Assembly (NCBI GenBank): GCA_036172245.1
Contig: JAYWIR010000006.1
Span: forward strand, 124,001 to 188,000
Source: Raillietiella orientalis
Lineage: Eukaryota
DNA length: 64,000 nt
Reading direction: 5' to 3'
Program-made: the position numbers and the translations under genes
In this document: positions 16-42,549 of the stretch, one piece after another
Layout: each line of letters starts with the position of its first letter
Numbering within the stretch: position 1 is the first letter of the stretch
Notes under the pieces: model-generated
What the model saw: only the letters and a program-made list of their open reading frames with translations
The model's database searches: none
Told to the model about the DNA's origin: nothing

Positions 16-452
16 TCACAGGTCGTGGTCGAGGAAAACGTGGTCGATGCTGTCCTCCATTTCTGGGTCCCCCTCCATCAAGTTGCGCGCACGCACGTCG
101 GTGCACAGCTCGATCGTCGCGTTCTTCTGCGTGCAGCACGCACCTGAGAGCAGGCGGAGGTTAAAGTCCTCGGCTATCAGGTGGGCCTTGCGCACTCCTG
201 CATCAGTCAGCCAGTCGCGCTTTAGATACTGGAAGAACTGAGTTCTTTCCGCGTACACTTTGATGCCGCTCAGAGCGTACACGTTGGTAACGATGAGATC
301 TATCGTGTCGGACCAGCTGAGAATCATCTGTCCAACCCGACCGTTGTCATCGAAGCGCACGTTCCTCACGGAAGCATCGACGGCTGGCTTTAAAAAGAAC
401 GCGACACCGCAGTTGTTGCGGTTACCGCATCGCCAATACAACCGATCCCCGA
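16..452 (-). mobile_element. L1/Tx1-clade LINE ORF2 fragment, APE-type endonuclease domain
   Basis: Translation has APE motifs CGVAFF, TNVYA, (G>E)DFN and SIDHVFL; homologous to the EN fragment at 9850-10120. Confidence 0.85.
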
Positions 453-514
453 AAAACCAAGGACCAAAGCGACCCCCGAAAAAAGGCTAAAGCTGAAGTA
501 TCGGGTGTACCTAT

Positions 515-3208
515 ATGGAACTAGGAACTGGAAGTATGACGCTAAACTTGCTCGTAGAGGCCGCGGGACAAGGAGCGAACGTTAGGTCCGGCCATGGTCT
601 GAACTCCGGGATCCATGGTGCTACTAAACTAAAGGAACAAGAGGCAGCGCAAATGTCTGTCATTGTTTCAGGAGTGAAATGGACAGAAGAAGATGAGTCG
701 TTATACCATGAAGTCAAGAAACTCATGGAACAGACATACATGAATATCGACTCGAGGGCAGACGATTTAAACGAACATAGCGCCCTAATTACAGTAAAGT
801 TCTTGAAGAAATTGCCAGGAGGTGATAAGATCTGTCTTAAAAACCACGGACAGACTGCCTCAGAGTTGGAAGACTACATCAGGGACGTGTGTAAATATGC
901 TCTAGGAGATAAAAGGCTGATCCTAGACAAAAAGAAATTTATAAACACTCGTACGCAACAGAAACCGACAGAACCGTATTCAACACTCTTAAGTGAAATG
1001 CTTTGTCGGGAAAATTGTGATAGGTTTATGGACAGGATGGACGAAAGTTTGGAAGGGGGTTGTATCCTGTTCAAACAGACACTAGAAAGGAATCGCAATA
1101 GATACATGTCAAGTACAGAAACATGGACGTTCAGGCACGAGAATCTCTTTCAACGGAAAAACAGACGGGAAGGAGAAAGGAGGAAAATGGTACATATGCC
1201 AGAAACAAGTATGGTTGCAACACCTACGGAGAGGAAACCTTGTATGATATATGAGGCAACTGAGAAAAAGAAAATCAAGGATAGTAGGCCTATGGCCTAT
1301 AAAAGACTAGTGACAGTGGAAGGGCAGCTGCCTGTTATTGAAGAAACACTAAACCGTGCGACGGAAGACAGAATGACGAAGGAAGATATAACGTTCAACG
1401 GCAACGTAACGGCACAAGTAAGGGAGTTGATTAAGGAGGCAAGTCGGAATGTAGATAGTGAATCTGAAGTAACACAGCTGGATCGTTCTGTACTATATGG
1501 GACATTAAATTGCTTTTTACAAGAGAAAGATTGCCTTGAGTTCCTAAATAGGAAGAAAACTCCCTTAGAGTTGATATGCCAACAGACAATGAATTCAGTG
1601 GGGAGACGAGATGGACTAGTCATCAAAGGAAGAGGTGCCGAGGCTAGAGAGTACAACGATAAGAAGGATCTAGTCAGTAGAGCAGCAAAGATAGCACGTG
1701 CCATCAATTGGAAGGCAAAAAGGATAATCGGATTTTTTACTATAAGAGAGACCAATAGGGCGTGGAAGCGGGCAGTCGCACTACAGATCCTAAAGATATG
1801 GCAAGTTACAGAGTGTGCCAAGGCGGGGGGTAATTATCAAGATTTGTTCTTCCAGCCGACAGAGGGAGGTTCGGCAAAAAAGAAACAGCTAGTGTCCAAC
1901 ATGATCGAACTGGTCAAACTGTGGGCCAGTGTCAAAAAATGCAACGACATAGAAACCAACAGAGTCGAGGAAATGCTAGAAGCATCACACACAGGAAGGT
2001 TTGTGGAGAAGTTAGTAGTAAAAGAAGAGGCAGAGAATAGCAAACAGGCCTGTCAGAGTTTTATTAAGCTTATGCTATCAACCCATGAGGTTGCCTTCTG
2101 GCAGAAGAAAGTTTGTGTTTACTGTCTATTCCGGGAGCTAAATCCAGAAGCCCAGCTCAATGAGTGTGAAATAGAACAAATCGGGATTAACATAGATGGA
2201 TATGCCGCAAATATAGCTAGGAAGCATAACAAGGAACAACATGCTCTAAACGGAAACATTGATCGCGAGGGTGTTGTTAAAGATCTTAAAGAGAAGTACT
2301 GGGACAGCCCGGTAAACGGGTGGCATCGAATGTCAAGAGAACAGGCCAGATATCAACGTGCCTGTAGAGAAGCTGAAACGATCGCTGTGGTCATGGGAGA
2401 TCATATGAGAAGAGAGTACATTGTCAACAGCAGTACGGTCCACCAACAAATGTATCCTGTTGAGAAAATACGTACAGCCGAGGTCTTTGCAGTGGATGAA
2501 GAGGAATGTAAAGTATTCATTACTGCAGATTATTTGATGGATCATAACAAAAAATTGGTTGCTGAGGGTAAACCAATGGTGAGCAAGGAGGAGCTGGAAC
2601 GGCATTTGAGCATGGAAAAATACAAGATAGAAAGTAGAGATCGTGATAGTTTAATAAAAACCAACGCCTCGACTATAAAAGCACTGATTAAAGAGCGCAA
2701 TGGGCATAGGTTTAGTAAGTTGCGCAAGAAGCTGGAAGAACGTGCGCATTGGATAGGGGTAGGGCAGGTTACAACATTGGAACATGGGACTCTGTGTTTG
2801 AACAATCAAGGGAAGATGGTTAGAGTGGCGATATCAGGAGCAGATACAAGTGATATCATTATAAACGATGCTCGATCTCACAATATTTGGACTAAGTTGA
2901 GTGGCACACCGATGAAAGCAGGTGCAATCCTATCTGGAATGGCTGGAGAAAAACATGATTGGAGGACATTAGGATTGAAGGCCGCACTCTACGATATGCA
3001 AAAAGATGAAAGTTGGACAGAACCTGCGGGTTCAGACTATATCTTGAGCACTGGGGTAGACCGGCATTCAATAGTAATCAATCGTGTGGGGAGCTCCCCG
3101 TATAGTGCAATAGCATTAGACCTAGGGGCGATGTCAACTTACTTAGCCCGTAAGGGATGTATTCCGGTAAACGTAGGCACAGTGGAAAATCCGGAAATTA
3201 ACAACTAG
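515..3208 (+). CDS. Intact intronless 897-aa ORF, N-terminal part of a putative endogenous viral element (EVE1), family unassigned
   Basis: Long intronless A/G-rich ORF in a genome whose genes have many small introns; no TE or host domain recognised; flanked by LINE fragments; colinear homologue at 10765-12205. Confidence 0.6.
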   Translation: MELGTGSMTLNLLVEAAGQGANVRSGHGLNSGIHGATKLKEQEAAQMSVIVSGVKWTEEDESLYHEVKKLMEQTYMNIDSRADDLNEHSALITVKFLKKLPGGDKICLKNHGQTASELEDYIRDVCKYALGDKRLILDKKKFINTRTQQKPTEPYSTLLSEMLCRENCDRFMDRMDESLEGGCILFKQTLERNRNRYMSSTETWTFRHENLFQRKNRREGERRKMVHMPETSMVATPTERKPCMIYEATEKKKIKDSRPMAYKRLVTVEGQLPVIEETLNRATEDRMTKEDITFNGNVTAQVRELIKEASRNVDSESEVTQLDRSVLYGTLNCFLQEKDCLEFLNRKKTPLELICQQTMNSVGRRDGLVIKGRGAEAREYNDKKDLVSRAAKIARAINWKAKRIIGFFTIRETNRAWKRAVALQILKIWQVTECAKAGGNYQDLFFQPTEGGSAKKKQLVSNMIELVKLWASVKKCNDIETNRVEEMLEASHTGRFVEKLVVKEEAENSKQACQSFIKLMLSTHEVAFWQKKVCVYCLFRELNPEAQLNECEIEQIGINIDGYAANIARKHNKEQHALNGNIDREGVVKDLKEKYWDSPVNGWHRMSREQARYQRACREAETIAVVMGDHMRREYIVNSSTVHQQMYPVEKIRTAEVFAVDEEECKVFITADYLMDHNKKLVAEGKPMVSKEELERHLSMEKYKIESRDRDSLIKTNASTIKALIKERNGHRFSKLRKKLEERAHWIGVGQVTTLEHGTLCLNNQGKMVRVAISGADTSDIIINDARSHNIWTKLSGTPMKAGAILSGMAGEKHDWRTLGLKAALYDMQKDESWTEPAGSDYILSTGVDRHSIVINRVGSSPYSAIALDLGAMSTYLARKGCIPVNVGTVENPEINN

Positions 3209-4860
3209 TATTTAGAGGATACTAGCACTGCAATTATAGTGCTGGATGATAGGTCAGTGCTTACGCCAGTAACACTTGCCCTATGGATACTAGTCCACCT
3301 ACATTATCCTCTAATTGACACATATGACATTTACATCGTAGCTGTAGGAGGAATGAAAGACGGTGATGGATTTGAGGGAGAGGTGAAGAAGGAAGAAATC
3401 TTATACAGACGTACCTCTTCTCTAGTGGATATAGAGTCATGAGCAATAAACTTGGTGTTAGTGACCACAGATAAGGTCGGACACCTGAGAACGATCGCTG
3501 GGACAGATATTCCAATCACTGTGGGTGAACGATATCATAATGAGCTAGAGCCTACTATGGCATTTGACCCGCAACAGATGTTACGAAGGGCGTTAGATCC
3601 CGTTTATAGGTATAAGGGTAAATTGACAAACTTATTAGACATTTATCTGCGGCCGAGGATGGCCTCAAGGATGAACTGGGGAGAAATTGAACACTTGGCG
3701 GGAGTACTGACAGTTCGGTACATACCCCGTGAGGAGTTGGGAATCGATAAGGAAGGAAATTACGAGTATAGAACTATTGTGGATCAAGATGGCAAGAACA
3801 TCAAGGAAGTAGAGAATGAGACGAACTGCAGGCTCCACATACTGAAATATGCAGCATATGGACATGATGATAGTGTCAATGCTATTGACCAGGCCTTTGT
3901 CAGCAGGTCAACAGCAAAAAGGGCACCAGCTGTCATACTGGGCTGCTGGAACAATGTGACAGAACTAGCAGTCATGTGTGGACTAGCAGACTATATGACT
4001 TTTAATTCAGAGACGCATCAGACTGTCTGTAACTACCTGGATGTATCATCAGCTGATAAGGTATTCAGGACTCGTTACTTGAGACAGATAATAGAAGGGA
4101 AAGAGTCAACAGCAACGAACGATGAGCTGTCAACAGTTAGGAACAATGTAAATGCAGAGCACGGATGGGACTTGCTAGTGCATGCAGTAGAATGGGGGAC
4201 TACGACCCTGGAACAACTATTACAATATGTAGTTGGGGGGGAAGTGTGAGATGGCAATGGACAATGTGGAGACACCATGAACAGGTGGTCAGTTTGACCG
4301 GGATTAGTAGTCTAAGCCATCGAAGGGACAATATAACGTCGGGCACTATTACTCCCGCCTGTGAAGTGAAACTAGGATTGGGGGTGGAAGACTGGGATTA
4401 CCTCCGAGTCCATAAGAAGTCAGCGACGATAGAGGGTACGCACGATTGCTGCAAAGAATCGACAGTTATCGTGCCAGACATAAGATAACACGGATGAATA
4501 TCATCAGTCGGGCGGAGGATAAGAGGTGCGCTACTACGCTAGAATTAACGTGTCGGCGGAAGCTCACCTATGCAACAGGTTACTGTCAAAAGTATTGTGA
4601 CTCTGATAAGAAACCCATCACCTGGGGGGTAGGAGTGAGTCGAATATCTAGGAACTGGGAGGATCTGGTAATGGCTCAGACAGTTATAAACGTAAACCTA
4701 AGTGAACTACTCCAGAGACGAAACCTAAGTTGGGAACTGGTATACACAACAGGTGAAAGGTTAGCAGTCGCTAGCAACTATCAAGATGGAGTGTGGAAAC
4801 CTCTGGGTTTTCAATTAAGGCAGGTGAGGACCAGGGTGGATATGAAAGACAAGACGGAAG
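3209..4860 (+). pseudogene. Disrupted continuation of the EVE1 reading frame (original ORF about 1400+ codons)
   Basis: ORFs 3239-3442 and 3452-4249 are in the same frame as 515-3208, separated by single stops; then frameshifts (G run near 4234-4241 and near 4480) into ORFs 4165-4488 and 4446-; same composition until the LINE 3'UTR at about 4860. Confidence 0.65.
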
Positions 4861-5403
4861 GGGGAAGAAGGGTGGGGAAAAGCAGAAAAAAAAACAAAAA
4901 AAGAAAAACGCCTGGAGGAACAATGTTTTTTGGGAGGGGAAGGAAGGGAAGGGATCACGGTACGCCGTGGGAAGGCCTCTGCATCCGGTTTTGAATACAA
5001 GTGCTGGCAGAATTTTACTTAGTCGGTGCCAACGGGAAGCCTACTCTATGGAGATGACTGCCCAGTGGATGGCATTCCGACTCCTGCGGCCTCTTCTTGA
5101 CGCGGTCTACTTGTCCAAAATTCCGCGTAAGCAGTAGAGAACTGCAACACACGCAGTGCCTGGAAGGGAGTCTCGCATCAGGAGGAGACGAAAAAGGTTT
5201 TTAGGGTCGCCCGCCGGAACGTTTGGGATCGACGAGAGTCGACCCCACATCTGGCGGAGGGCAACGCACTCGATTATTAAGTGGGGGAAGGTCTCCCTTT
5301 CCCCACACTCTGCACAGTGGACATCCATACTCCCTGAAGTCCAGTGGAAGAGGTGTGCTCTGCAAAGGAGTCCCCAGTGGAGCACTAGCAGAGCCGTCTC
5401 TGG
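4861..5403 (-). mobile_element. LINE 3' end (copy A): zf-RVT C-terminus plus truncated 3'UTR fused to EVE1
   Basis: LVLHWGL...CAECGERETFPHLIIEC zinc motif, then GTGATCCCTTCCC and a pyrimidine tract as in the other 3'UTR copies. Confidence 0.85.
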
Positions 5404-8006
5404 GAAGCTCAAATGGCGGAAGTCACCGAGGGAGGACGGCCTGCCCACGGAGTTTTTTCAATGCTTCGCGGCGGAGCTTGCCCCCCTGGTGCAGCGGCTA
5501 ACGCTGCTGATCCGGGAGGCAGGCAACGTTCCCGCCTCCTTCCGATCGGCACGGATGCGTCTTCTCCCGAAGGGAGGAGACTCACGGAACCTCAGCAATT
5601 GGCGTCCGATCACCGTTTCAAACGCGGACGCCAAGCTGCTTGCGAAGCTATGGTCGGAACGAATAGGGCGGATGGCGCAAAGCTTCATCAGCCCGGAACA
5701 GACATACGCTGTTCCCGGGGGAAGCATGGACGCCAACCTGCTCTTCGCGAACACCTGGTTCGGGTTCCAGCGGTGTAGATTAAATGAAAAGAATAAGATC
5801 GGCACCCCGAGTTGCGGGACGTCCGCTGGTGGTTTGCGAGATGGTCGGGAGCTCGATGGGGCCCTCGCGGTCGCAGTCGATCTGCGAAAAGCATTTGACT
5901 GCGTTGACCAAGAGCTCCTGCTGGAGCTAATGGAGCGCCTGGGCTTCCCGGCCTCCTTATTAGCCTTTCTGCGCTCTTGCTTGCGCGACTCGCTGACCAA
6001 TATTTCTTTCAGAGGAAGAAACGTGTTCGGTGTGCCGGTGCGCCGCGGGATACGGCAAGGTGACAGCTTGAGCCCCTTGCTTTTCAGCACCTACTTCGAG
6101 CTGGTGCTGAGGGCATACAGGGAGACTCTTGGTCACCTGCCGCGCGTGTGCCCAGGTACACCGGCCGTGGCGTCTTATGCGGACGATCTTTTGCTGCTGC
6201 TCCCCATGTCCACCCCGGCGTCGGCGGTCGAAAACTTTTTCGAGCTGCTGCGTCGCGGGACAGGGCTGGAGGTGAACAGAGCGAAGTCGTCCGTGGTTGC
6301 AGCTGGTTCATCACGGGCAGGGCAGCCGGACTGGTTTAGCTTGAGGATCCCCACAGTACCGTACTTTAAGTACCTTGGTGTGCCGTTGGGAAACTATTCC
6401 CCTGCGAAAGCGTGGTCTAGCTGCCTCCAAAAGGCCGAGAGAGCGATCGGCCCGTTCCTGGATGGCAAGTTTTTTTGCCGGAACGGGCCGTGGTGTGGAA
6501 CACGTTCGTGGCCCCCCTTTTTCGCCCCTTGCTTTTTGTTTGCCCTCCACCCTGCGGTGTCAGAAAATGGACGAAGGACCTCCTCAGAATTGCCCTTTGG
6601 GGCAGAGGTAGGCCCCGAGTCCGTTTGAAGGACTTATGTGCCCCTGGTCGCGATGGAGGCCTCGGCCTCCTCACGCTGGAGCGGCTGGAACTGCAACTGC
6701 AGTTCAGGACTATAGCTCTAGTAGCGAAGCTATGGAGCACCAGCTGGTGCGAGCCTGCACGACGCCTGGTTCAGCGAGCTAGCGGCTGCGCGGGACTGTC
6801 TACCTTCCTAGCGCGCCGCAAACGCCGGTACCTGTTCCACTGCGGACTGGCACTTCGGCGAGTGGCGAAGCTGACCAGAACGAACACCTGGATCTCCTGT
6901 CGGCCCGCGAACAGTACTTCCTGGTTGCAGGAAAGCCTTCACACGTGGGCCCAGATCGAGGAAACGAGCCCGGAGTTGCGGCAGCGAATGCTGCTCTCCT
7001 ATCACAAGAGCCGCTCGCTGCAGGACATCATTGTGCAGCCCACCTTGAGCGCATGGGCTGAGAGGACCTCCCTTGCCACGGCTCCGTTCCACCTTAGGGA
7101 GCACCTGGGCAGTAGCCATCCGGCGAAATGGGAAGTCCGGTGTAGTATCTCTAGAAGAGAGAGAGAGCAAGGTGGTTGGACCACGGGCCAGTTGAGAGAC
7201 GCTGCGACCCCAAGTGCCCCACCAAAGGGACTATTGCACTGGGGCGATCTGCTGAGCATCCCCATGGATGTACTCGAGTGGCCCCCGGTGCTGAAGACTA
7301 CCCGGGCCCTCCCCCCGAAGTGGCAGGAGTCGGCGTTCCTGGTGTTGCACTGGGGACTCCCCAGCAACGCCCGCCGTTCGCACTGGATGAGGGGGGCTGT
7401 GGACCCAAATTGTGTCAGGTGCGGGGAACGGGAAACCCTCCCGCACCTGCTTCTTGACTGTGTTGCCCTCCGGCCTCTGTGGTTGCGTTTCGCAACGGCC
7501 CTAGGAGCACCCACGATCAACCCTAGAGACGTTCTGACGCGCCTCTTTGTGCGTGACGCCCTTCGGCCTGCCGCAGCCCTTGCAGCCCTCTGCTGCCTAC
7601 GAGGTATTGTGGCGGCCTGGAGCACCGCCACTGGTGGACTGAACGACAGGGACATCATCTGCTCCGCCCTGCGTTTCCTAAGGACGGCAGCCAGATGGTC
7701 CCATTTGGGGCATATGCGGACCGAACTTGCCGGCATCCTGGAAAGGATATAGAGGACGACTCCAGCGGAATGTGATCCCTTCCCCAACTCCTCCCTGCTG
7801 CTTTTGTAAATAGTGTTTTCTTTTTGTTTTTATTTGTCCTTTTCCCCCCCGCTGCCGAGTCGAACTCGCCAGCCTGCGTGCTAGCTACTCGGCAATTTCA
7901 GACTCTTTATTAGAACATTTTTTAGGACGCTGTAGGGGCAATAGCCCTACACTTGCTTGTTTGTTTTTACTAAAAAATAAACGCCCCGGCGCACCCGGGT
8001 GTAAAA
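5404..8006 (+). mobile_element. 5'-truncated L1/Tx1-clade LINE (copy B): reverse transcriptase, zf-RVT and complete 3'UTR, one frameshift near 6470
   Basis: RT motifs SPREDG, LLPKGGD..NWRPI, DLRKAFD, GIRQGDSLSPLLF, YADD, KYLG; CVRCGERETLPHLLLDC; stop at 7752; flanked by the 16-bp direct repeat GCAGAGCCGTCTCTGG (5388-5403 and 8007-8022). Confidence 0.95.
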
Positions 8007-8022
8007 GCAGAGCCGTCTCTGG

Positions 8023-8431
8023 AAGTGGAATGCATCGAGGAGAGGACATAAAAGCCGGAATACCATTCATTGGGCAGTCCTCTCTATTGAGAAGGCATGC
8101 CGATGGCGCCTGTTATGGACAATGCCGGCACTTGCCCGCATCCGAAACCGGATGCAGAGGACTCCTCCCGGAGACCAATGATTCCATCCCTTCCCTCCCC
8201 ACCCAATAAAACTTTTTCCCCCCGGCGTTTTTCTTTTTTTTTTTTTGGTTTTCCCGCTCCCTTCGCCCGTGGAGTACCTCACCGACCTGTGGGTTGGTAA
8301 GGACAAGTGCAAAACTCTGTCAGAACCATGTGTTCTGACTGAAAAACACACAAAAACAAACAAACCAGACCTTATTGTAAAGTTTATGCTGAACTTTAAT
8401 AATAAAAGCCCCGGCTACTCCGGGTGAAAAA
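8023..8431 (+). mobile_element. LINE 3' terminus (copy C)
   Basis: Homologous to the reverse complement of about 4861-5115; ends AATAAAAGCCCCGGCTACTCCGGGTGAAAAA. Confidence 0.8.
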
Positions 8432-9360: not shown

Positions 9361-9848
9361 TCGACAGAACAGGTGTTCGTGGAGGAACGCTGGTCCGGCA
9401 ATTCCTGCATCCAAGGAGGCTGGTGCACGAGGTGTGAGCGTGCGTGCACACCTCGTTCACCAGCCTCTCCCAGGATGGCAGTGAACATTGAAGTCCCCGC
9501 CAACGAGGTGAGTCATGTTAAGGGCGGAGTCGGTGAGCCAGCGGCTTTGCAGGCTATCGAGAAACTAGAGTGCTCCCGCGTGACACCCTCCGCCACTCGG
9601 CGCGTACACGTTCGTAACGACAAGGTCGATGGATTCGGACTTGAAAACAAATTGGCCCAGTCGATCTTCCCCGTGAAAACGGATTGTTTGTTCGGATATT
9701 CTTGTTTGTTCTCTCTCCATCCCCCTCCGCTGCCGAAGAGAGTCTCGTCAGTCTGCGTACGGGCCAGCAGGTCCACTGTTTGATTGGCCGTACTGGAGCC
9801 TCCTATCAGGTGGAATTTTTAAATGAATGCACCGAATTGACCGGGTGC
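9361..9848 (+). mobile_element. Divergent LINE 3' fragment (copy E)
   Basis: Pyrimidine tract, GCTGCCG...GTCTGCGTAC...CCAGCAG motif and CCGGGTG terminus shared with the other 3'UTRs. Confidence 0.6.
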
Positions 9849-10764
9849 TAACGTCGAAACGGAGGTTCCGCACCGCCCCATGCGGAGTTGCATTCCTATC
9901 CTGGACAAGGAACGCAACTCCGCAAGTGTTTGCAGAGTCTTGCCGCCAGTGAGGCGTCCCGCCTGCGCGCTCTTCCAGATCGGTCACCTACTGTTCGGTG
10001 ATGTTGTGTATCTCCTGCAGCAGCACCAGATCGAATTCGCGCAAGACGTTGGCTACCAACCTCCTCTTCTCAGCGTCGCGCACCCCGTTGACGTTCCAAC
10101 AGGCTACGCGAACGCGACGAGAGGATGCGAGTTCGCGCATTGCTGCTGCGGATATGGCCGCGCTTTCCTCGACCCGTTCGGCGAGGGGTCAGCCGGGAGC
10201 ACGAGACAGTGGGGAGCCGAATCGCTCCCGTCTTCTGACATGCAGCACGCGGCTAGCTCTTGGGTGTCGAGGAGCATTGTCTTGATCTCCGAAAAGCATC
10301 GGCCTCGTGACTGGAAGGCTTTGGCTTGCGCGCAGACCCAGGTTGCCCCAGGACTTGGAGCACTTTCGAGCTGCCATAGGACTCCATCTCGGAGTCTGAA
10401 TGCTGTGCGTGAGACAGGTGTTTCGCCTGTCGGTTTTTTTGCTAGTCCAGCTTTCAGCTGCCACCACAAAAACCGTAGCAGTCCTTGGAGGTTCCTTGGT
10501 TGGACACGAGAGCCTCTAGTGTCTTCTGGATTTTTGCTAGTGGCTCCCGTTTCTTGATCGCGGCCAGGATCAGCCTCGCCACATATGCCTGTTGCGCCTA
10601 CTTACCGGGAGGTGCGGACAAAGTGGCGGGATTCACAGGAGTCCCTCGAGGTTTCGCAGCCTTCCCTGTGGCTTGACTCGCCGTGGACGGCTTACCTATC
10701 GCGGACTGAGGGGTGCGCGACCCCTCGAAAGCGGCACCGGGCGATTTGCTGCGATTTGAGAGTT
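9849..10764 (-). mobile_element. LINE ORF1 C-terminal region and start of ORF2 endonuclease
   Basis: Minus-strand translation RVACWNVNGVRD..FDLVLLQEIH..CGVAFLV (APE N-terminal motifs). Confidence 0.85.
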
Positions 10765-12205
10765 GCATGAGATGGATGTTCTTCCTCAATCGAAGGCTTC
10801 CTTGAACCCGTATTGGATCAAGAAGCTTAAGGGAATCTGCGCCCCCTGGGTAGGCGAAATAGCAGAGGCTGAGCTAGCACATCTGAGCTCAGCGCCTAAA
10901 GTTTCGGGTTTCGAAGTTGCCTCCCGAGAATTCCGAAAAGTAATTCTAGACAAATGAGGTCACCAACTTTGGTGTGCTCGAGTTCTAAACGCTTTAGTTC
11001 CGGTCTTGAAGCACGCTAGGCTCGAGTTGGCGGTTGGTGAACCGAACCCCTTAAATGATCCGGAGGTTAGTGAAGGTAAGAGAGGGCGGGCTGATGAGGG
11101 CCTTATAACCCTTCTGAAGCCCCCCTCTGCAGGGTGCACCACTGATATTGCCAAGGATGTAGACCCCGTCTGAGTCACCCAGGGCAGTGAAGGTGACTTT
11201 CAATCTGCCGGAGGAGCCGGCAAGGTATTTTGGGAAGTAGATGAGGCGGAGAGGACCCGTTAGGAGCTTCCATTAACATAAGGAAGGGTAACATAGACAG
11301 CACCTCCAATTTGTACACGGCTTTCGAGGACCACCTCACCACCCGCTGTGCGGTGCTTAGCTTGGATAAGGTCTCCCAGGTTGGACATCTGACAAAAGGG
11401 ATCCCCGACTCATTGTGAGTCGGGTTCAACTCCCGGGTAAGGGAAGGTGCCACCTACTCGAGGAAGACATGCAGCACTGCGGAGGCCGTGATCATCGAGG
11501 CCTCGAGCAGGTAGACAGCTGTGCGGGCACTCAGCCGACTGCCGGGCAGACTACGCGCCCAGACAAACCCAAGGAGTCCCTGTGGCAGAGGGCAACGAAG
11601 TTCGCCCGGGCGATAGGGGGTGACTTCAAACGGGTCTACTCCTTTATAAATAAGGGTCAGTCGGAGGGACGTTTCGTGATAGCCGTGCGCCGTGCACTAC
11701 TGGCCCATGGACAACGTCGCCGTCTGAGGAGAGCAGATGGCTGTCAGACGTAACGGACTCCCGCTCGTAGCACCGGAAAGGTTATCGTCTCTCGGTTGCT
11801 ATCGACCATTATCGCGTGGGCGAAACGATCATCGCCAAAGGATCTGGGAACCCAGGGGAGTACTGGGGGGGAGGGCGAGGGCGGCCCTGTTCCTGACGAT
11901 ATACCTGGCTCCCGGTTTCTTTGTTTATCTCCTCACCATTGTGGCTCCGTTACTGTGAACTCACCCAGTTATGCCACTGGTGTGTGTGTCAGCGGACTCT
12001 GGGCCAGCTAAATCCGACTCCCCTTTCTATTCCCCCAGTAGGAGTTCCCTCTTACCAAAACTACACAGACGTGAGCAGCGCCATCCTCTATAGGGAGTGT
12101 GTAGTTGGAGTATAGAGGACGGAGATCGGTATTTGCATTGAACCACCGGCATTCCGATTCTGAGCAGAGACAGACGCGCATGGTTCTGCAGCCTTCACCT
12201 GGATG
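10765..12205 (+). pseudogene. Degraded putative endogenous viral element (EVE2), homologous to the N-terminal half of EVE1
   Basis: Colinear peptide matches to the 897-aa ORF (IKKLKGIC/LKKLPGGDKIC; RKVILDK/KRLILDK; SLWQRATKFARAI..KRVYSF/DLVSRAAKIARAI..KRIIGF; IVSRLLSTIIAWA/LVSNMIELVKLWA); several stops and frameshifts. Confidence 0.65.
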
Positions 12206-13523: not shown

Positions 13524-14165
13524 CACATCCGAGCAGTAGGAAGGAGGTGGCTGCACGGGATATGGATGCAAATTGCTACAGGTGAGGCGAGGAGACCCTG
13601 CTGCACCTTCTGCTGGATTGAGCCGGACGAGTCAGAAGCCGGCTTCTGACTCCTTCGGGATCAATTCTCGACGATCCTGGAGATCCCGGGTGCGACCCCA
13701 AAGACATTGTACGAAACCTCTTCATGCGTCTCGTTCTTCCGCCAGCAGCGTCCCTAGCATTTCCCAGCTGCGAACGCGGAATTGTGGCAGTCGGGAAGAA
13801 GAGGCCGGAATGACAGGGGCGCCATTCATTGGGCAAAAAAAATTTTAAACACCGCCTCCAGATGGCCCCAGCTGGGAGAAAAAACAACAGATATAGTCAG
13901 CATCCCGCACAGGATGCAAAGGACGACCCGCGGCGAAATGTGGTCCCTTCCCTGGCAGCCCCCCTTCCCAGAAAACTCTTCCTCCCTTTGTTTATTTTTC
14001 GGTTTTTCCTTTCTCGTCGCTGCGGAAACGCACCCCGCCGGTTTCCGTACCGGTGGTGACAAGTTCTTCGCATGTGCTAGAACGAAGTGCCATACTATTA
14101 TGTTGTAATTGACTCGACTTTTATTGTTTTAACAGTATATGCCGCATCAAACCTGGGTGAAAAAT
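13524..14165 (+). mobile_element. LINE 3' fragment (copy G)
   Basis: Degenerate zf-RVT (LHGIWMQ..CCTFC), GTGGTCCCTTCCC after the coding end, conserved hairpin at about 14037-14056, CTGGGTGAAAAA terminus. Confidence 0.7.
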
Positions 14166-33380: not shown

Positions 33381-35330
33381 ATGCACAGAGCAGGTGGTAA
33401 ACATGAAGGCCTGGTGGTTAGCAAAGCTCCACCAAAAGGTACAAGATTAGTTATGTAGACAGAGTATTGGAGGCTGTCCATCACTAGATGGCAATGATAT
33501 TGGGATGGCTCATCTAACCTTGGAATTTAGAGTCTACTTGGTGAACCAATCTACAGGACAGCATAGTCAGGAAAGTCGACAGATATGGTTTTGGTTTCAG
33601 TTAGATACACCAGAAAATTCATGGGCCTTGCTAGCCCAACAGTTCTTTCAGGAACTTATTGCACCAAATGATTTTCCCAGAGGTTACACTTCCTCACATT
33701 TGTGTCCAATTTTATGATTTTCATTACAGACTATGTTGGTTTCTTAACCAGGATGATGACTCTGCTTCGGTATCCTTTTACTTCTATGTGTAGAGTGGAA
33801 GTTAAGTTGACCCAGTTAGGCCCAGCACAGAAACTGCCCTCAGCCCCTAGGCCTAGTGAGTATATTGGCAGCCAGCAGGCAGTTAATCAAGATTGCAGCA
33901 CTGCACTGATTCACTGTAAAGGTTGGAGGGGTGTGCTGTGAAAAATAGGTGGGGAAGGGAAGGACTTGCAACACTTAACTAAGCACCCATTAGTTCTAAT
34001 TCTGTTTCTGATGTCAATACCAAGTCTGATGATATTTTTGTTTTAGCTACACCTCAACTGTCTGAATCATCAGTCCTTGAAATCTTAGAATCAGCATATC
34101 CTTCACCTCTCTCCTTGGTTGAATTAGGACGTCAATTATCAGTCCCACCAGAGGAAGTAGCACCATTTGTCAAGTGTCTTCAGGATAAAGGACTTTTATG
34201 TTGTATTGGAGGCAATGCTTTTACTCGTGTCGTCCAAGATTCCACTCAGGTACTTAATGGGAGTGCCTGTGTGGGAGATGAGCATGATATGTTTAGGTAG
34301 TCAAGCAGATGCCAAGTGTGGCAACTGCCAACCAACCTACCATTGCCATTATCACTGCAGGTTACTGTGAGAAGTTAGCTGTGGATGCTATGATGGATAG
34401 TCGTCAGACATTTGTTCGTTATACCACTGTAGGCAAGTGTTATGTTCTCTCTTCTGGCCATTACTTCATGTGGTGTCAGGTGAATCGAATGTGTATACAC
34501 TAGGAACAATAGGCTGCCATCATGTAGTGTCGACCAAACTTCCTGCTGTTGTAGGCAGCCGGTCTCGGGGTGCCCGTATTGCTGCTGGCAATGGTACTAC
34601 CCGTTTGCTAGGCACTTTCCAGCAAGTGGAGTTTGTATTTGTGATTGGAGTGTGTGGTGGAGTGCCCCAAGTAGCTGATTATAATCGCCATGTGCGATTA
34701 GGCGATGTAGTTGTATCCCATGCTAACCATGGGCAGCGACACCATGTATACTTGGCTTGTCGAGAGCTACATCAACTAGACAATGGCATGTGGCAGTTCG
34801 AGACATGCTCCTGGGCACCAACACAACCCCTTCTTCAGGAAGTAGCTAGTCATCTAGCAGCCAATCCCACTATGCCTTGGCTGCAACATTTGCAAGATGG
34901 AGCAAAGCGACTGCAACAAGCTGACATAGACTTTCAGCGTCCTCCAAAAGGGACAGACAAGTTGTTACTATCCATCGGTGGAGATGATGTTATCGAGTTG
35001 TCACACCCGTCATGTCCTGAGGGTGTGGATCCTGTTAGAGCAGAGGGTATGCCAAAGATCCATTTAGGATTGTTGGCTGGTGGAAAAGACATCATTAACC
35101 ATGAAACAGCACGAATGGAGTTGGCACACAAAATGGGCATTCTCGCATTTGATGCGGATTTCGAAGAAGTCATTAATGGAATCTGCGGTAGTTGCAAGAA
35201 CCATTACATAATCATTCACGGAGTCGCCGATTACCGAGATGGAACTGTTGGACGTGAATGGCAGCCGTATGCTGCATTGGCAGCAGCCAGCTTCATGAAG
35301 ACGATCATATGCGAGCTGGATCCGATTTAA
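33381..35330 (+). CDS. Conserved uncharacterised protein with a predicted winged-helix-like region and a C-terminal purine/uridine nucleoside phosphorylase (PNP_UDP_1)-like domain; exons 33381-33438, 33488-33682, 33730-33855, 34047-34249, 34297-34432, 34480-35330
   Basis: Frame-consistent splicing; PTIAIITAGYCEKLAVDAM, YTLGTIGCHHVVSTKLP, FVIGVCGGVP..VRLGDVVVS, GVADY..WQPYAALAAASF; start codon uncertain. Confidence 0.88.
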
Positions 35331-36184
35331 CATGTATCGTTATGAGAAGAGTTCTGTTATGTCGTTAAAACGTTTGACGTAATATTTGCCGAATTAAGTG
35401 GGATGATTCAAGCGTTTTTTTTTTTTTTCCCCCCCCCCCTCCCTCCCTATGGAACCGAATGATTATTTTTCTGTTAACCAAATACACGCATGTTATATCA
35501 TTTATTATTGTATTCCCTAAATTCCAGTTCAGAACATGGAATGGAAAGCAGCCTATGCTTCCTGTTTTCCGATTACTGAACCACCATCGATTCAAAAAGT
35601 GCTTACATCACTAAGCGACAAGCAGCGTGCGCCACACTTGGTGCTGTGCGCCTATTGCTATTGTTTGTATACAAGACGCCATGTTGTTAGGTGGGGTCGT
35701 ACCTAAATTTCCAATATAAAATTTTCGTGCCCTCGTTTCATATCTACACAATATGCATGTGTTGGAAAAAAAAAAAAATGTGCGAAAAATCTTATTTGCT
35801 CACAATCGGTTGCAAATAAGGTGGGGGGGAGGGATGGGTAGGAAGAGAAAAGAAAATTATTATTATTATTATTATTTTTTTCCTCCCCCCCTTTTTTCCC
35901 CCCCTTTCTTATCGCTTAGCATTTTCCAATTCACCGGGAAGCTTTTCAACGAATGTTCGATGCCTACCCGAATGTGAAGGGAGAATTTTCCGAATTTCAC
36001 CCCCCCGAAACGCAGGGACTACTTTCAGCGCGCGCAGTAAGACGAAAGGGAAAAAAAAAAAAAAAAGATACCCGCGTTAAATAACGACTCTCGCAACAAC
36101 GATTCCAGTCAACGTGAAAACTTTCGCAAGTGTGCGTCCGCCGTGTATGGTTGCATGAGTTCAATACTTGGAAGGTCGCCCGTA

Positions 36185-37204
36185 ATGAGCGCTGACGTCT
36201 GTAACCGTGTCGCATTGAGTGTATCTCCGCGAGCAGGCGCAGAGCAGCCGCCTCTTTGCGAGAAGGCGTGTTTCGCCGCCGAGAGTGCCGAGGTGTGTGC
36301 CACCGCCCTGGACGTCCTGGATAGTGGCATCTCGAACGGTGAAGGCACGTCCACCGGGGTGATCGAGCACCGTGCTAGCAAGCGACGCCGCAAGCGCAAG
36401 CACAAGAAGAAGTGGAAGCCATACGACAAGATGACCTGGGACGAGCGTCAGGAACTGGCCAGGAGGGAAGCGCGCCGGTCGGATCGGCTCCACGCGAGGA
36501 TGCTGGCCAAGGGCAAACCCGTGGCCCCGTACAACACGACCGAGTTCCTCATGGAGGAGCACAGGTCCGAGTACGAGGACGACGTCCTGGAGCAGCTGAA
36601 CTTCGACCACGCCGTCCCGTCGATGGAAGATTCGGACGGGGACTCGTACTACTACGCAGCGTCGGACGAAGAGGAGTTCTTGGCGGAGCAGTTTCGGTCG
36701 GAGTACCAGATCTTGTACGCGGAGCGACTGGAAACTCTGTCCAAGGATGAGCTGGTCGAAGAGTACTTGCAGCTGGAAGAACGCATAGAAGAGATGGATC
36801 GCCTGTTGATGCGCAGATCCCCTGAAACGCAGTCGGACGATTCGGACGGCGAGATGATCCCCGGGGAGATGCGCATGGACCCGGAGACTGCGGAAAAGAT
36901 ACGCATCCTCATCCAAGAAATCGAGAAGCTGACCGAAGAAAACAATCTGTTGAAGGAACGCGCCCCTCCCTGGTGGAACCACCAAGTCATCAACGGTGAC
37001 GACAGTGAAAGTGATACTTCGTACTGCAGCAAGAGCAACTGCAGCTGTGCTTACTGTAGTGGTGGCAACGACAGCCACGATCCCACTAGTGATTCCATCC
37101 TTAGTAGTAATTGCTCGACCTATGCTGATCGGAACCATAGTACGAGCGTCCAAGCAAGTAATGATGATCTCAACGGAGTTGCGATTCCGGATGCGAATAA
37201 GTGA
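36185..37204 (+). CDS. HEXIM: HEXIM P-TEFb inhibitor (7SK-binding), single coding exon
   Basis: Basic tract KRRRKRKHKKKWKPY..TWDER, PVAPYNTTEFLM motif, acidic region, LSKDELVEEYLQLE coiled coil. Confidence 0.93.
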   Translation: MSADVCNRVALSVSPRAGAEQPPLCEKACFAAESAEVCATALDVLDSGISNGEGTSTGVIEHRASKRRRKRKHKKKWKPYDKMTWDERQELARREARRSDRLHARMLAKGKPVAPYNTTEFLMEEHRSEYEDDVLEQLNFDHAVPSMEDSDGDSYYYAASDEEEFLAEQFRSEYQILYAERLETLSKDELVEEYLQLEERIEEMDRLLMRRSPETQSDDSDGEMIPGEMRMDPETAEKIRILIQEIEKLTEENNLLKERAPPWWNHQVINGDDSESDTSYCSKSNCSCAYCSGGNDSHDPTSDSILSSNCSTYADRNHSTSVQASNDDLNGVAIPDANK

Positions 37205-40200
37205 CCAGTGCCCTTGGGGTCGTACTGAGTGAAGGAGGAGAGGACACTCGGTGAAATCACAGAGAGTTCGTTGTGCACGCGAACTTGGAAGTATCAGTTT
37301 GCAGAGATTTTTTTTTTCCTTTTTTTTTTAGTCTAAATTCATATATGTAGAAGGGTGCTAGAACTTTTCATAATCCCCACTATAAACCACGTTATGACGG
37401 CAGTCATACACGAGAACCTGGTTCCAGCATGACTTTCGTGTACCAATCTCACGAATAGCGCATTGCAGAATAGTGTAAGGAGCTTTTTCAGTTTACCGAT
37501 GGTACTGTTTCATAGACGATGTTCCAGAATACATAGATGATATGTAGTGTTCTATTAAAAGTGTGCGAGTACGGAGAGGTGGTACGAGGAAAACTATGAT
37601 TTATTATAGCAAGCGATCCATTTGGAGTTTGTCCTGTGAGAGTGAGTGAGTGAGTGCGTGTGTTTGTGTGTATGTGTGTGTGTGTTTTCCCCCTTCCTGC
37701 AACTTTTTCATTAAAGAGTTATCTTGTTATGCCTAAATTGTGTGAGTTTCTCAAGCTTGTTGGAAACAAAAAAAACAAAAAAACCACGGTAGAAGTCGTG
37801 CTAGTGACCAAAGCTCGTGACGACTCCGCAGAGGTCGGATCAGAACGTGTCACAAACATCCCTGTGAAAAACGTGTTGCTTGAAAAAAAAAAAAAAAAAA
37901 AAGAAAAAACGATGTGATTGGAAAATGTGCTCTGTCATACGATTCGGACGTTTTTTCGGAAACTCCGTTTCCGTAGAAGTAAGGCAAAAGTGTTTCGAGG
38001 GTGAAGAAAGGGAAGCGAGAGCGGCGGCAGCCTGGCTCGCGTGCTGCCGTGTGGATGACCGATTTCCGTGGATGTGGACTGTCCACTCAGCTCGTTTGTG
38101 GATGGCGGAAAGTGGCAGTTTCCTCCAAGATAACATGTGCTAGTCAGAATTGCCAGCTTTGCAAAGCTTTTTCGAAATTTCGTCGCTGCAAAATGCATTT
38201 CGCTGTTTTTTTTTTTTTTTTTTTTTTTTATTCCGATATGCCCAATCAAATGCATTTTGTAAGTAGAATGTAAATTCGTACAATTTTCCGGAAGAGTTCT
38301 AATAAAAGGAGAAAAGTTTTTAATCGACCAAGCTTTTATTACTAGAAACGGTGGTCGCCGATGCGGCGATAAGCGGCTGACCAGGTCACCAAACTCTCTC
38401 CTCGTGCACGTCGTCGGCAAAGGCACCAAACACCGCAGTCCACGTGTGCACGTGTTTTCGAACGCAGGTCACTTCACAATGCATCATCCCAAGTCGCATC
38501 CGTCTTCTTCTGCCCTTGCGGTCTTCGTGCTTGTGTCCTTTAGAACAGATGGAGCGTCCAAACCGTGGGATCTGGAGGTTCTTTCCACTCCAAGTGGAAT
38601 TAAGCTTCTTGGCCTTTTGTTTGTTGGTGTCCTCGAAACTTCTCGATCGACTTGGTGTTTCCAAGAAACAGTACGGCAAACGTTCGAAAGATTCCATGGT
38701 TGCTCTCTTGGCTGCGGCTGTTCAACTTTCCAACCACTCACTGCACGAACAAACCAGGCGTGCCACCAGCTGTTTCGTGTTTGATAACACATAAGGCAGC
38801 ATCATAAAAAAGGTATAATTGCATATGAAGGAACCTTCTCTCATCTACATTTGAGAGAACATGGGCACTTTTTAAGCTTCGTTCAAAGGACGTGTGCCGA
38901 TTTCGCTTCTGTTGCGTAGAGCAAATTCATTGACGTTTAGGGATTGTAGTGTTCCAGAAAATGATTCTCTGATACCTGCACTTCCTCCTGTTTCCGCAGA
39001 TCAATTCTAAAAACGAAGGTTCCGCTAACCTTTTTTTTTTTTAAAAAAAAAAAAGAGAGAAAAGAGAAAAGAAATCGTCTGTTAAGAGTGACTGCATGGG
39101 TACTTTGGGACAGTAAGGTGTTTCCACGGAGTAGTTCGCCTCAATTTATTATCTTAGATTCGCGTCCAAAACCCTCCAAGCAGAGAGGGAGACGGTGCTG
39201 AACACAGGCGGTTTCTTGACTTTGTCGAAATGGTCGATCCCATTTTATATTCGGGTATCTGCATATAAAATGAAAAGGTATCAAGAAATGCAAGCTTTAA
39301 ATCCACGTATGTGACTGATTTTCCAATGTCTTCACTTTTTTTTTTTTAGCAGGGAGGATCGGCATCAAAGCAGCGTTTCATTTGCAAATGAAAATAAAAA
39401 GTTTGCCTGAGAAGATGCCTGTCGGTGTTAGGGGCGTGTTAAAAATGGAAAGAATTTTGATGTGTTCCTCTAGAAGCGTAAAATCTAATTTAAAGCCAAG
39501 AGTAATGGTTGTATATGGGCCAGTAGCGCATGATGGAGATCATATTTGATGATGGACACGGTTTGAACAGATTTTCCAAGGAAGTCTTTCGGTGCTCGGA
39601 GGGCACGTATAAATATGGGCAGTCCCGAAAGTCACATGAATCCAGTTGCAAGGATTCAAAAAATATTCGGGGAAACTTTCAATTCCTCAAAAATAATGAG
39701 AATCGAATATCTCAGCTTTACGCATGCGCGCTCGCAGCATCCCCCGATCGTTGTTGTTGCTGTTGTTTTTTTCTCCGATTTTTTACACCATCAAGATGAA
39801 AGTGATCCCCCGAGATGAATTCATGTGTTTGTTTGTTTTCATGTATTAGCGAAGGACTTATCCTCCAGTTACCACAAATGCTCTACCCTACTGCAAGAGC
39901 AGCTCATCCTACCACAGTGCCATAGCATGCATTGGTCATCAGTAATTGCTTCAAGTGTTCGTGTACATTTAAGTGTTCCTTCGCTTTCGATGGTAGTCGC
40001 AAACGTACGGTTGCTTAGTCAGATTGATGTAGTGACGGCTAGCGAAATTTTGCCACGTAAGTTTTTGTGCGTGATGGTTTTTCAGAGTGCTTCCTGGACC
40101 CTAGGAAAGGAATTTTTTGTTCGAAGCCTAATTTAGTGTGAAGTTCCAGATGATGAAGTACACTGAGTGTTTTTTTTTTTTTTTTTCCCCTCCAAATCAA

Positions 40201-40807
40201 GCACTTGTTTTTTGTTTTGTGATTTTGCGGTCTTTCCTGATATCGAAAACCCATGATTAGCTGAAGGCATCCCATGGAAGAATCGAGGTGGTTTCATAGT
40301 TGTTTTTGTTGGTTGCCCAAACCTCTGTGTACCTCCCAGATGGCAAGTGAATAATTTGCGCTTTCCATTTTCCTTTGCTTTGTATCGGTACTCGGCCATT
40401 TCTCTTGCCGACTTTTTTTTTCCTCATATCTCAGAAATCCCTATGGCCACCTTTCCCTTCTCCCTCCCACGGCACCGGAGTGAGAGACGGTTATTGCTCT
40501 ACGAAGAAGCAAAATCGGAGGCAGTGCGCGGAATTGAGTGATTGCGTTGTTTATTTGTGGTGGTTGTGAAATTTACGAATGTATACATTTTCTTTTCTCT
40601 ACCCATCCAGCGATAACCACGGGGTCAGTTTTGTTCCCGCAGTTTCCGTGAACGTACGCAAACATGCCTACACGCTTGGCGTCGAGAGTGTATATATCTT
40701 CGTCTCCTGCGTCCAACGGAGGAGGTTTCCCGATTTTGGGGATCTTGCTCTTTCGTGGCGGCTCACCATCTTCTAGGATGCATCCGTGATCTGTCGTGTG
40801 TGGGGCC

Positions 40808-40830
40808 ACACACACACACACACACACACA
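40808..40830. repeat. (CA)n microsatellite
   Basis: About 11 CA units. Confidence 0.9.
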
Positions 40831-42549
40831 GTGTTCTTGTCTGGAGGGAGGGACGGGGGGGAGGTTGCTTTCTTGGACAGTAGATGAAAATGCAAGTCGC
40901 CATGGTCAGGGTCCAGCAAATCGTTTGGCAGGGAATGCATCCATGCAAGCGAGTTTTTTTTTTTTTTTTTCTTTTCTTTCTGGATGTACATCTTCCCTGA
41001 TGGACTTCCTAGGTGAGCTTCTTTGGCAACCAAGATCTTTCAACCAACCAAGCCGCGGAACTGGAGGCTCCGCAGCAACAGGAGTTTCGTTTAATGGCCT
41101 GTTGCTGGGTGATGCGAGCAAATTTCGCAGTCGAGCAAAAAGAAAGCAGAGGCTCGCATGCGTTGGCTTGGGGATTCAGCCTCGGATCAGTCACGGTACT
41201 TTTGCGTGGTGATCAGAGATTTGGAAGCCCTGGGTCGGCTTTTTATGAGGTGCTTCTGGTCGTTGCATCTGCACCCTGAATAGTGGAAGGTTCACGTTCG
41301 AATGGCGATGTACAAACGTGGAACACCCTCGTTTCTTTTTTTCCCCTCTCTTTTCAAAAAAAAAAAAAAGAGGAATTCAAAAGTTTCCTTATCTTGATTT
41401 GCTTCTTTTTCATGAAAAAAAAAAAAATATATTTGCATGTGTGTATGCGTTGTGTTTTGTTCATACGTGTTTTTGCTCAGACGTTACGATATGCATTGAT
41501 TCATTTTACTTTCTGTTTGAATTCAGCTTTCTGGAGATTTTTTTTTTTTTGCGAGAAACGTGAAAAGCGCGCGATTCATTCAGATCATCTCCGTTTTTTG
41601 CTCGAATTTGCGACTTTTTATTCCCGCATTCCGGAGGAGGCTCTGAGAGTCTTTTTTTTTTTTTTTTTGCTGTTGTTTTGGAACCGCTGGCCATTTCGAA
41701 GGAACTTCCCGGTTCCTCTATCCAGCTTTCATGCTAACTATGTACCCTATGTGATAAGCCCTTGTGATTCTCTTAACCATAAGCATGTTTATGTATATGC
41801 GCACACACAGATGCGCTGGGCTGGTGGCTGTGCACTTGCTACGAGTGTTTTCTTGGTTATTCTCGAGGGGATAAATGGCTTCATTGTTTTTTGTTTTTTT
41901 TTTTCTTTCCACACCGACCTCAGTTTTGTTTTCAGTGTGCTTTTCTCTTCCAGTCCTCGTTCGTTCCTGCAAACTCCAAATCGGAATTTCAGTCGTTGCC
42001 GTCAATTACATCGTATGGCTTCTCACCGACGTCTCACCGATTATTTGTCACTTCACATCCTTTTTTTCCCCTTCTTTTTTGGCAGGGACGCTTCTCCTTT
42101 TCTCTTGATTGAAAATTATCTCCTTTTTTTTGTGAGGGTGACATCCTTCCTTTCGGTCCCATAGGCCTGCCTCCGCATGCATGCAGCTGCTTTCCGCGGC
42201 TAATGCGTCGCTCGTCGAATTCACGGCGTATCGCTTGTCTCCTGTTTTTTTTTTTTTTTTTGCTCCTTCTTGTATTTTACTCCTGCTACCTTGTTTGCTT
42301 CTCTACGGGAGCTGCCGAGGATCCTGCTTTCCGAATCTCCAGCGCTCTCGGTTTTAAAAATGGAAGCATCCAAGTTCTCCTTTTCGTGTCGGAAGAAACA
42401 CCTCACCTAGGCGGCGGTCAGTGCAGGTGGCCACTGCTGGCGTGTCGTCTGCCAGTGCTGCAAAGCGGTGCACTTAATCTTCCTCCTCCTTCTTCTCGCT
42501 TTCGTTTTTGATCACGCGTTCTTGCGAAAGGCGAAATCGCCCCTTTTCT

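Follow-up and report, generated by a model that had tools for sequence, protein, structure and literature searches.

A stretch of 64,000 nucleotides from Raillietiella orientalis (GenBank assembly GCA_036172245.1, contig JAYWIR010000006.1, positions 124,001 to 188,000 of the forward strand), referred to here as the window, contains near its left end an open reading frame (ORF) of 897 codons on the plus strand, and this locus raises the question of what the ORF encodes and whether selection or chance has kept it open. The ORF (515..3208) starts with ATG and ends with TAG, and stops are found in the same frame 5' of the ATG, at 488 and 494. We concluded that the block containing this ORF is probably a DNA copy of ORF1 of a toti-like double-stranded RNA (dsRNA) virus, which is now a young decaying pseudogene among fragments of long interspersed nuclear elements (LINEs); this endogenous viral element (EVE) is called EVE1 below. 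An earlier note on the same DNA, made from its letters alone, had described an intact ORF of 897 codons, and this was borne out: when 515-4900 was shuffled 500 times, the longest ORF had a mean of 91 codons and a maximum of 183. Up to 4249, stops in the frame of the ORF were present only at 3206 (TAG), 3440 (TGA), and 4247, and the remaining two plus-strand frames contained 120 and 110 stops over 441-5000. The block at 451-4860 is also compositionally foreign to its flanks; its GC content was 0.42-0.47 with an excess of purines (A 0.34, G 0.27), whereas that of the flanks was 0.55-0.62.

A phmmer search of 1.84 billion representative proteins with the ORF resulted in 42 homologues at E <= 1e-3, including 10 at E <= 1e-10, so that the word orphan, which the earlier note had used of the ORF, was wrong. 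The best homologue (P0001, 1476 amino acids) matched residues 292-845 of the query with its residues 220-784 at 30% identity (E 1.1e-24), and many of the homologues were 1400-1700 amino acids in length. The identity to the closest relative among these representative proteins was about 30% at most. The description of the source as an unsampled virus was accordingly right only to the extent that no relative exceeds this identity. Other searches yielded little: Pfam assigned no family to any of the 24 homologues examined (of 42) or to the ORF itself, and on the three pieces downstream of the ORF gave only sub-threshold chance matches (piece 3452-4246). A word-index protein search found nothing with the ORF and P0001 alone with the family alignment, a search of the ESM Atlas with the ORF gave no usable match, and phmmer of P0001 against PDB sequences found nothing.

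The identity of the family became apparent from viral contigs. Scanning IMG/VR with the family alignment gave 12 loci; their contigs measured 2.5-8.0 kb, and eight of them 6.6-8.0 kb. In all four loci that were mapped, an ORF1 of 1555-1695 amino acids was followed by an ORF2 of 770-949 amino acids, and each of these four ORF2 products matched the Pfam family RdRP_4 above threshold (E 7e-8 to 9e-16). Because the downstream ORF2 carries RdRP_4, the relatives are ORF1 proteins of bicistronic toti-like dsRNA viruses. In tblastn, ORF1 of all 12 viral loci matched the window at 1289-4243, and residues 1123-1222 of one of them (L006) matched 4422-4715 in the third frame (E 0.002). The gene for RNA-dependent RNA polymerase (RdRp), in contrast to ORF1, was not recovered from the window: none of 10 downstream ORFs of the viral loci matched it at E <= 0.01, and no RdRP family was found within the window in 147 six-frame segments of at least 100 amino acids outside the block. 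The missing linked RdRp gene is expected for a partial endogenous copy. Since an RdRP_4 polymerase gene accompanies the relatives on their contigs, the source was an RNA virus without a DNA stage, as in a non-retroviral EVE (nrEVE). The origin of the block from a toti-like capsid polyprotein is near certain. The earlier note had guessed a large protein of a toti- or chryso-like dsRNA virus, in which no motif of an RdRp, reverse transcriptase, or transposase was recognised. The ORF1 relatives accompanied by RdRP_4 and the capsid fold described below agree with the guess, and Pfam on the block found no such domain. A cellular or transposon origin of the ORF, which best matches of that kind would have indicated, was ruled out by all homology evidence, the best matches being viral.

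A profile of 18 relatives, with the window's own sequence left out, was run on all six-frame segments of the window. It matched the plus strand at 497-3205 (profile 127-839, E 2e-79), 3209-3439 (profile 843-910, E 4e-14), 3443-4246 (profile 915-1180, E 8e-48), and 4425-4901 (profile 1248-1403 of 1490, E 5e-10), and weakly at 4237-4305 (profile 1179-1201, E 7). Because the profile matched the pieces colinearly, two stops and two frame changes interrupt a single gene. The intact ORF including its TAG (515..3208) covers 62% of a toti-like ORF1 capsid polyprotein, counted from the N-terminus, and this TAG (3206..3208), flanked by profile positions 839 and 843, is the first in-frame stop and lies within a conserved capsid block. 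A capsid piece of 77 codons (3209..3439) extends to the second in-frame stop, TGA (3440..3442), and is followed by a piece of 268 codons (3443..4246), for which the model described below had pLDDT (predicted local distance difference test) values of mostly 80-94. The first frame change (4234..4247) is at or just past a run of seven G; the match to profile position 1180 ends at about 4243, and the second frame resumes at 4237. The capsid piece in the second frame (4237..4413) corresponds to the weak colinear match, and this frame is open at 4141-4485. The position of the second frame change (4400..4425) is approximate, since the third frame, which is open at 4416-4991, opens past a stop at 4413 and the profile resumes at 4425. 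The C-terminal capsid piece in the third frame (4416..4860) covers profile 1248-1403 of 1490, and at about 4840-4862 the viral sequence breaks off, with neither the variable C-terminal tail of the family nor ORF2 included. These colinear matches bore out what the earlier note had read from the frames alone, namely one frame at 515-4249 with two internal stops, extended to about 4860 by two frameshifts, with every lesion located beyond codon 897.

The ORF itself was divided into three regions. The variable N-terminal region (residues 1-291, 515..1387) was matched by no homologue and was folded with low confidence: in the phmmer matches, the best stretches begin at residue 292 or later, and pLDDT was below 50 for model residues 77-246, which correspond to ORF residues 122-291. 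The second region (residues 292-581, 1388..2257) is a conserved helical pre-capsid domain with a cleavage motif at its end. Folded alone (AlphaFold2 model mb2a99083bd1e), this domain was all helical with a pLDDT of 76.9, and it matched the N-terminal parts of toti-like coat proteins in BFVD, a set of predicted viral structures, at E 1.8e-7 to 2.6e-6; against 48,161 PDB representative chains, the best Z was 5.0, which is under the stated noise level of the tool. The cleavage motif HNKEQHALNGN (residues 571-581, 2225..2257), located by a regular-expression match, occurred exactly once in each of the 19 long relatives, with 891-1113 residues after it. The family alignment contained eight invariant columns, C, C, H, N, H, N, G, and N, and the window ORF keeps all eight residues: C534, C537, and the rest in HNKEQHALNGN. 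These were the only invariant columns in 36 sequences (2114-2257), and they are arranged as CxxC and, 34 residues on, H-N-x3-H-x2-N-G-N. Judged from the sequence pattern, CxxC and H-N-x3-H resemble a Cys2-His2 arrangement, which would lie beside the scissile bond.

The motif connects this family with viruses whose capsid processing has been described. When the family profile was compared with all PDB sequences, only ORF1 of Omono River virus (OmRV; 9thi_A) was found (E 2.6e-5), through the motif at two places, and the matching cleavage-motif position of OmRV is residues 779-788. For infectious myonecrosis virus (IMNV) and OmRV, PMC7968656 describes the N-terminus of the capsid protein as arising by cleavage after a motif of the NKxMHxxNGN type. 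In the window, the sequence directly after the motif (2258..3205) encodes the first 316 residues of the major capsid protein and is inside the intact ORF, and the first stop cuts this capsid protein of about 870 residues at about one third. The intact ORF therefore extends from the pre-capsid region through the cleavage motif to the end of the first third of the capsid protein.

The fold of the interrupted protein was modelled from window 650-4246 with 36 aligned sequences, reading through the two stops as X. The mean pLDDT of this model was 63, and values of 80-94 were obtained over most of the capsid part. With Foldseek against the PDB, all nine matches at E <= 1e-3 were capsids of OmRV or Giardia lamblia virus (GLV) (E 3e-7 to 9e-5). 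VIA-align superposed model residues 537-1199 on residues 804-1399 of the OmRV capsid (6s2c_B) with a Z of 16.9 and a root mean square deviation of 4.5 over 459 aligned residues; further capsids followed with Z of 16.0 (7d0k_A), 12.6 (GLV), and 8.6 (yeast L-A), and the next, unrelated structure had a Z of 4.3. Model residue 537 is ORF residue 582, directly after the motif. The read-through model thus predicts a totivirus-type capsid fold that starts after the motif, and the check by AlphaFold and Foldseek that the earlier note had proposed led to capsids of toti-like viruses. Among the structures in BFVD, 46 matched at E <= 1e-3, the strongest of which were an unnamed entry (5.6e-45), the capsid of Solenopsis midden virus (4.5e-36), and the coat protein of Leptopilina boulardi toti-like virus (LbTV; 3.3e-27), next to which came Sanxia water strider virus 20 and Hubei toti-like viruses 18 and 19, and, lower, Armigeres subalbatus virus and IMNV ORF1.

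The virus from which the block was copied probably belongs to the arthropod clade that comprises LbTV, Hubei toti-like viruses 18 and 19, and Solenopsis midden virus. The coat proteins of these viruses were the best structural matches for both parts of the window protein (pre-capsid domain, E 4e-7 and 1e-6; capsid, E 4.5e-36 and 3.3e-27), to which they were 17-24% identical. Whereas these viruses are exogenous and have an RdRp, the window copy is broken, has no RdRp, and is embedded in LINE DNA. The IMNV/OmRV group is treated in PMC12433951 as the family Artiviridae, with arthropod hosts. The window gene resembles ORF1 of Artiviridae in its length, pre-capsid region, cleavage motif, and capsid fold (PMC7968656 gives an artivirus capsid of about 900 amino acids). 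However, its sequence similarity to OmRV is confined to the motif, which is present once in the window ORF and twice in OmRV. In addition, unlike in Artiviridae, neither 2A-like NPGP sites nor a dsRNA-binding domain was detected in the window ORF; NPGP sites were also absent from all 19 long relatives, and the dsRNA-binding domain was looked for in the Pfam scan. Because its sequence shares only the motif, without 2A-like sites and a second motif, the virus was not assigned to Artiviridae.

We then considered how the viral sequence is joined to the surrounding DNA. The left flank (16..450, minus strand) is a repeat-derived, LINE-like ORF fragment with diverged copies at 9469-9963 (minus-strand matches at 9469-9696, 40% amino acid identity, E 7e-14, and at 9841-9963, E 6e-4), and this repeat homology extends to query residue 13, at about nucleotide 450. 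Its motifs, which we take to be LINE endonuclease-like, were not supported by Pfam, which found no family in 16-450 even at E <= 5. Between the end of the repeat homology and the ATG, a segment (451..514, plus strand) that is purine-rich like the insert may be a remnant of the viral 5' untranslated region (UTR); the left end of the viral sequence can be placed only between about 450 and 515. The right flank (4862..5450, minus strand), in which homology begins at about 4862, is a LINE fragment consisting of the end of ORF2 and the 3' UTR, without its own 3' terminus. It paired at 4885-5112 with 8253-8023 (73.5%), at 5255-5400 with 7472-7327, and at 4890-4989 with 14007-13909, and gave a weak zf-RVT match (E 0.027). 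A plus-strand LINE copy starting at 5138 (to about 8330) has RVT_1 and zf-RVT within 5138-7749. The three copies of this one LINE family (4862-5450, minus strand; 5138-8330 and 13900-14100, plus strand) have in common a T-rich tract inside the 3' UTR, with no terminal poly(A) there.

At the right junction, the other two LINE copies run 60-100 bases past the point at which the right flank meets the viral sequence, and therefore the viral copy adjoins a break within an older LINE 3' UTR. The T-rich tract of the LINE 3' UTR, read on the opposite strand, accounts for the A-rich run at 4870-4910; a viral poly(A) tail at this run was rejected, since the two other LINE copies have the same run together with the sequence on its far side. 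A single LINE split by the EVE was likewise rejected, since the minus-strand order (4862-5450 before 16-450) and the sequences fit no one element. Read along the minus strand, the viral gene follows in antisense orientation immediately after the pyrimidine-rich LINE tract; a nick in this tract that primed reverse transcription of viral plus-strand RNA would be expected to leave such an order. An alignment of the left junction contained no persuasive target-site duplication and no remaining half of the LINE 3' UTR. We infer a sequence of events in which viral plus-strand RNA would have been reverse-transcribed by a retrotransposon enzyme, and the copy, which begins close to the viral 5' end, stops close to the end of ORF1, and lacks the RdRp gene, would have been joined into LINE-rich DNA where an older LINE copy has its pyrimidine-rich 3' UTR tract. 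Decay since then would have introduced two stops and two frame changes in the last 38% of the copy, with the first 897 codons still open.

The sharp difference in composition between the block and its flanks, and the location of one frame change at a homopolymer, could also be explained if cDNA or RNA of an exogenous toti-like virus had been wrongly joined to LINE sequence during assembly. We regard such an artefact as highly improbable. A replicating virus would not have two in-frame stops in its capsid gene and would keep its RdRp, of which none is present in the window, and a second, diverged toti-like fragment is located nearby in GC-rich DNA. In the assembly, the flanks are host DNA: LINE fragments occupy 16-450 and 4862-8330, and 36143-37204 contains a HEXIM gene.

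The second fragment (EVE2, 11370..11855, plus strand) is a separate, short, GC-rich piece of toti-like ORF1 that corresponds to the pre-capsid domain (profile 296-350, E 1e-7). Residues 263-321 of ORF1 of one viral locus (L007) matched it with 36% identity (E 9e-6), residues 322-482 of EVE1 matched 11415-11855 with 24.5% identity (E 0.018), and the region has a stop at 11751. Because it is only 24.5% identical to its counterpart in EVE1, EVE2 is an independent and probably older integration. EVE1 (515-4860) and EVE2 (11370-11855), which are independent of each other, are both found in 12 kb of LINE debris of mixed orientation, and this would also be consistent with a locus that acts as RNA, as part of a source region of PIWI-interacting RNA (piRNA) type, rich in transposable elements and directed against toti-like viruses, for which the open frame is irrelevant. 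The involvement of nrEVEs in host antiviral immunity is reported in PMC10636211, and PMC10675110 describes EVE loci that yield small RNAs directing RNA interference. However, clustering of EVEs and transposable elements may only mark where insertions are tolerated, and a HEXIM gene 31 kb away indicates that the region is not purely heterochromatic. We give a function at the RNA level a small but appreciable chance; it would be compatible with, rather than opposed to, a decaying copy of the viral gene, and any present role of the locus is more likely at the level of RNA than of protein.

The gene and segments farther to the right were also annotated. The HEXIM gene (36143-37204, plus strand) was apparently intronless and matched Pfam PF15313 at E 9e-31. 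Its best named relative, from Varroa jacobsoni, had 42% identity over 42% of the query, unnamed relatives reached 44%, and the nearest clusters in the Atlas were mostly from Arthropoda; these relationships make an arthropod the likely host. A winged helix-turn-helix (HTH_69, E 4e-8) at 33983-34297 (plus strand) is possibly a transposase remnant. At 40000-43000 the AT skew was strongly negative (-0.25 to -0.375), mirroring the purine-rich block of EVE1, and this segment contained no match to the toti-like profile or to Pfam.

It was then considered why 897 codons of EVE1 are still open, by selection or by chance, the two possibilities that the earlier note had named. The susceptibility of codons to stops was the same in the intact part (4.9%) as in the broken parts (4.8-5.0%). 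Because two stops have arisen at a susceptibility of 4.9%, about 41 substitutions in 4.3 kb, or a change of about 1%, can be estimated, although crudely. A copy this young can keep 897 codons open without selection. When the lesion-free 5' part was treated as a Poisson zero, p was 0.084, and for a lesion-free run of such length anywhere it was 0.105. Decay was also compared through identity ratios, defined as the median identity of the EVE to 27 full-length relatives divided by the median mutual identity of these relatives. The pre-capsid domain had a ratio of 1.00, and within the capsid the ratio was 0.95 for the intact and 0.99 for the broken part; in this sequence comparison the broken part had no detectable extra decay, which argues for a young copy. 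In ant genomes, 54.8% of EVE matches are given as free of stop codons in PMC6540820, and therefore open frames alone are common.

Domestication of the ORF as a host gene would mean that a truncated viral polyprotein is under selection and the downstream part is free to decay. The four lesions all past codon 897 (p about 0.02), the ATG start with in-frame stops upstream, and the retention of all eight invariant family residues would fit such a gene, and a precedent is reported in PMC10636211, in which the capsid-derived NlToEVE14 is translated and needed for development and fecundity of the planthopper. NlToEVE14 of the brown planthopper and the window ORF are both derived from a toti-like capsid gene and have an open frame; however, exon-intron structure, transcription, translation, and a knockout phenotype are described for NlToEVE14 in that report, whereas the window locus is known from sequence alone. 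The open frame in the window is a truncation to 897 codons of a unit of about 1450 codons, and with only one third of its length left, a capsid protein would probably not fold into a subunit of the shell. Furthermore, the broken part is conserved like the intact part (0.99 vs 0.95), so that nothing indicates separate histories for the two, the weak p value is in part post hoc, and open EVE frames are common anyway, as the figure for ants indicates. We therefore consider domestication unlikely. If it had occurred, a possible role would be interference with the processing or assembly of related toti-like viruses. More specifically, and with a still lower probability, the ORF could be a host gene in the making, acting as a decoy or dominant-negative inhibitor of toti-like polyprotein processing or capsid assembly. 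Such a decoy would consist of the helical pre-capsid domain and the N-terminal third of the capsid, together with the cleavage region and its invariant CxxC...HxxxxH..NGN residues, and its action would be comparable with the restriction of cognate viruses that is attributed to Fv1 and EBLN.

Several points weigh against the interpretation of the block as a young copy that has decayed without selection after retrotransposon-mediated integration. If four lesions are distributed uniformly over about 1449 codons, the probability that all of them fall past codon 897 is p = 0.021, and this mild clustering is what selection on the 5' part would give, although it is suggestive at most. An assembly error could account for the frame change at the run of seven G; with this lesion removed, the copy would look younger, yet all lesion statistics would be weakened. 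The identity-ratio test is insensitive, since at 20-24% identity a few percent of extra decay is invisible. The integration mechanism is inferred from one junction, and the left junction is without the expected other LINE half. Finally, both junctions are known from the assembly alone. When these points were weighed together with the results above, the question of selection or chance leaned towards chance: a neutral young pseudogene is the most likely state of EVE1, and youth, ahead of selection, is the most likely reason for its open frame.

A toti-like EVE (ToEVE) is an element of a known kind, of which thousands have already been catalogued. According to Huang et al. (2023; PMC10636211), 593 of 1188 arthropod genomes contain such elements, 5686 in total and mostly disrupted; in the same report arthropod ToEVEs are usually disrupted by frameshifts, often derived from the capsid protein only or the RdRp only, and up to 10.8 kb in length, and LbTV is the top-hit, or cognate, virus of 36 ToEVEs in nine species. 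In ants, 12 of 13 Toti-Chryso-like EVEs are listed as coat-derived in PMC6540820, and two of them cluster with the Leptopilina virus. The window copy resembles these elements as a disrupted, capsid-derived DNA copy of a toti-like virus without an RdRp. Unlike usual ToEVEs, it spans nearly all of ORF1 and has an open frame of 897 codons, and its closest relatives are about 20-30% identical.

The window copy records a past infection of the host lineage, probably an arthropod one, by a toti-like virus for which the collections searched contain no close exogenous relative, the identity being at most about 30% among 1.8 billion representative proteins. The two fragments in LINE debris would fit a region that is tolerant of insertions or that produces small RNAs, and the locus is a candidate for tests of EVE co-option or small-RNA immunity. 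The near-full ORF1, including the little-studied pre-capsid region, is useful for studying the evolution of the LbTV-like clade. The helical pre-capsid domain, without a solved counterpart (best Z 5.0), is the more interesting by-product.

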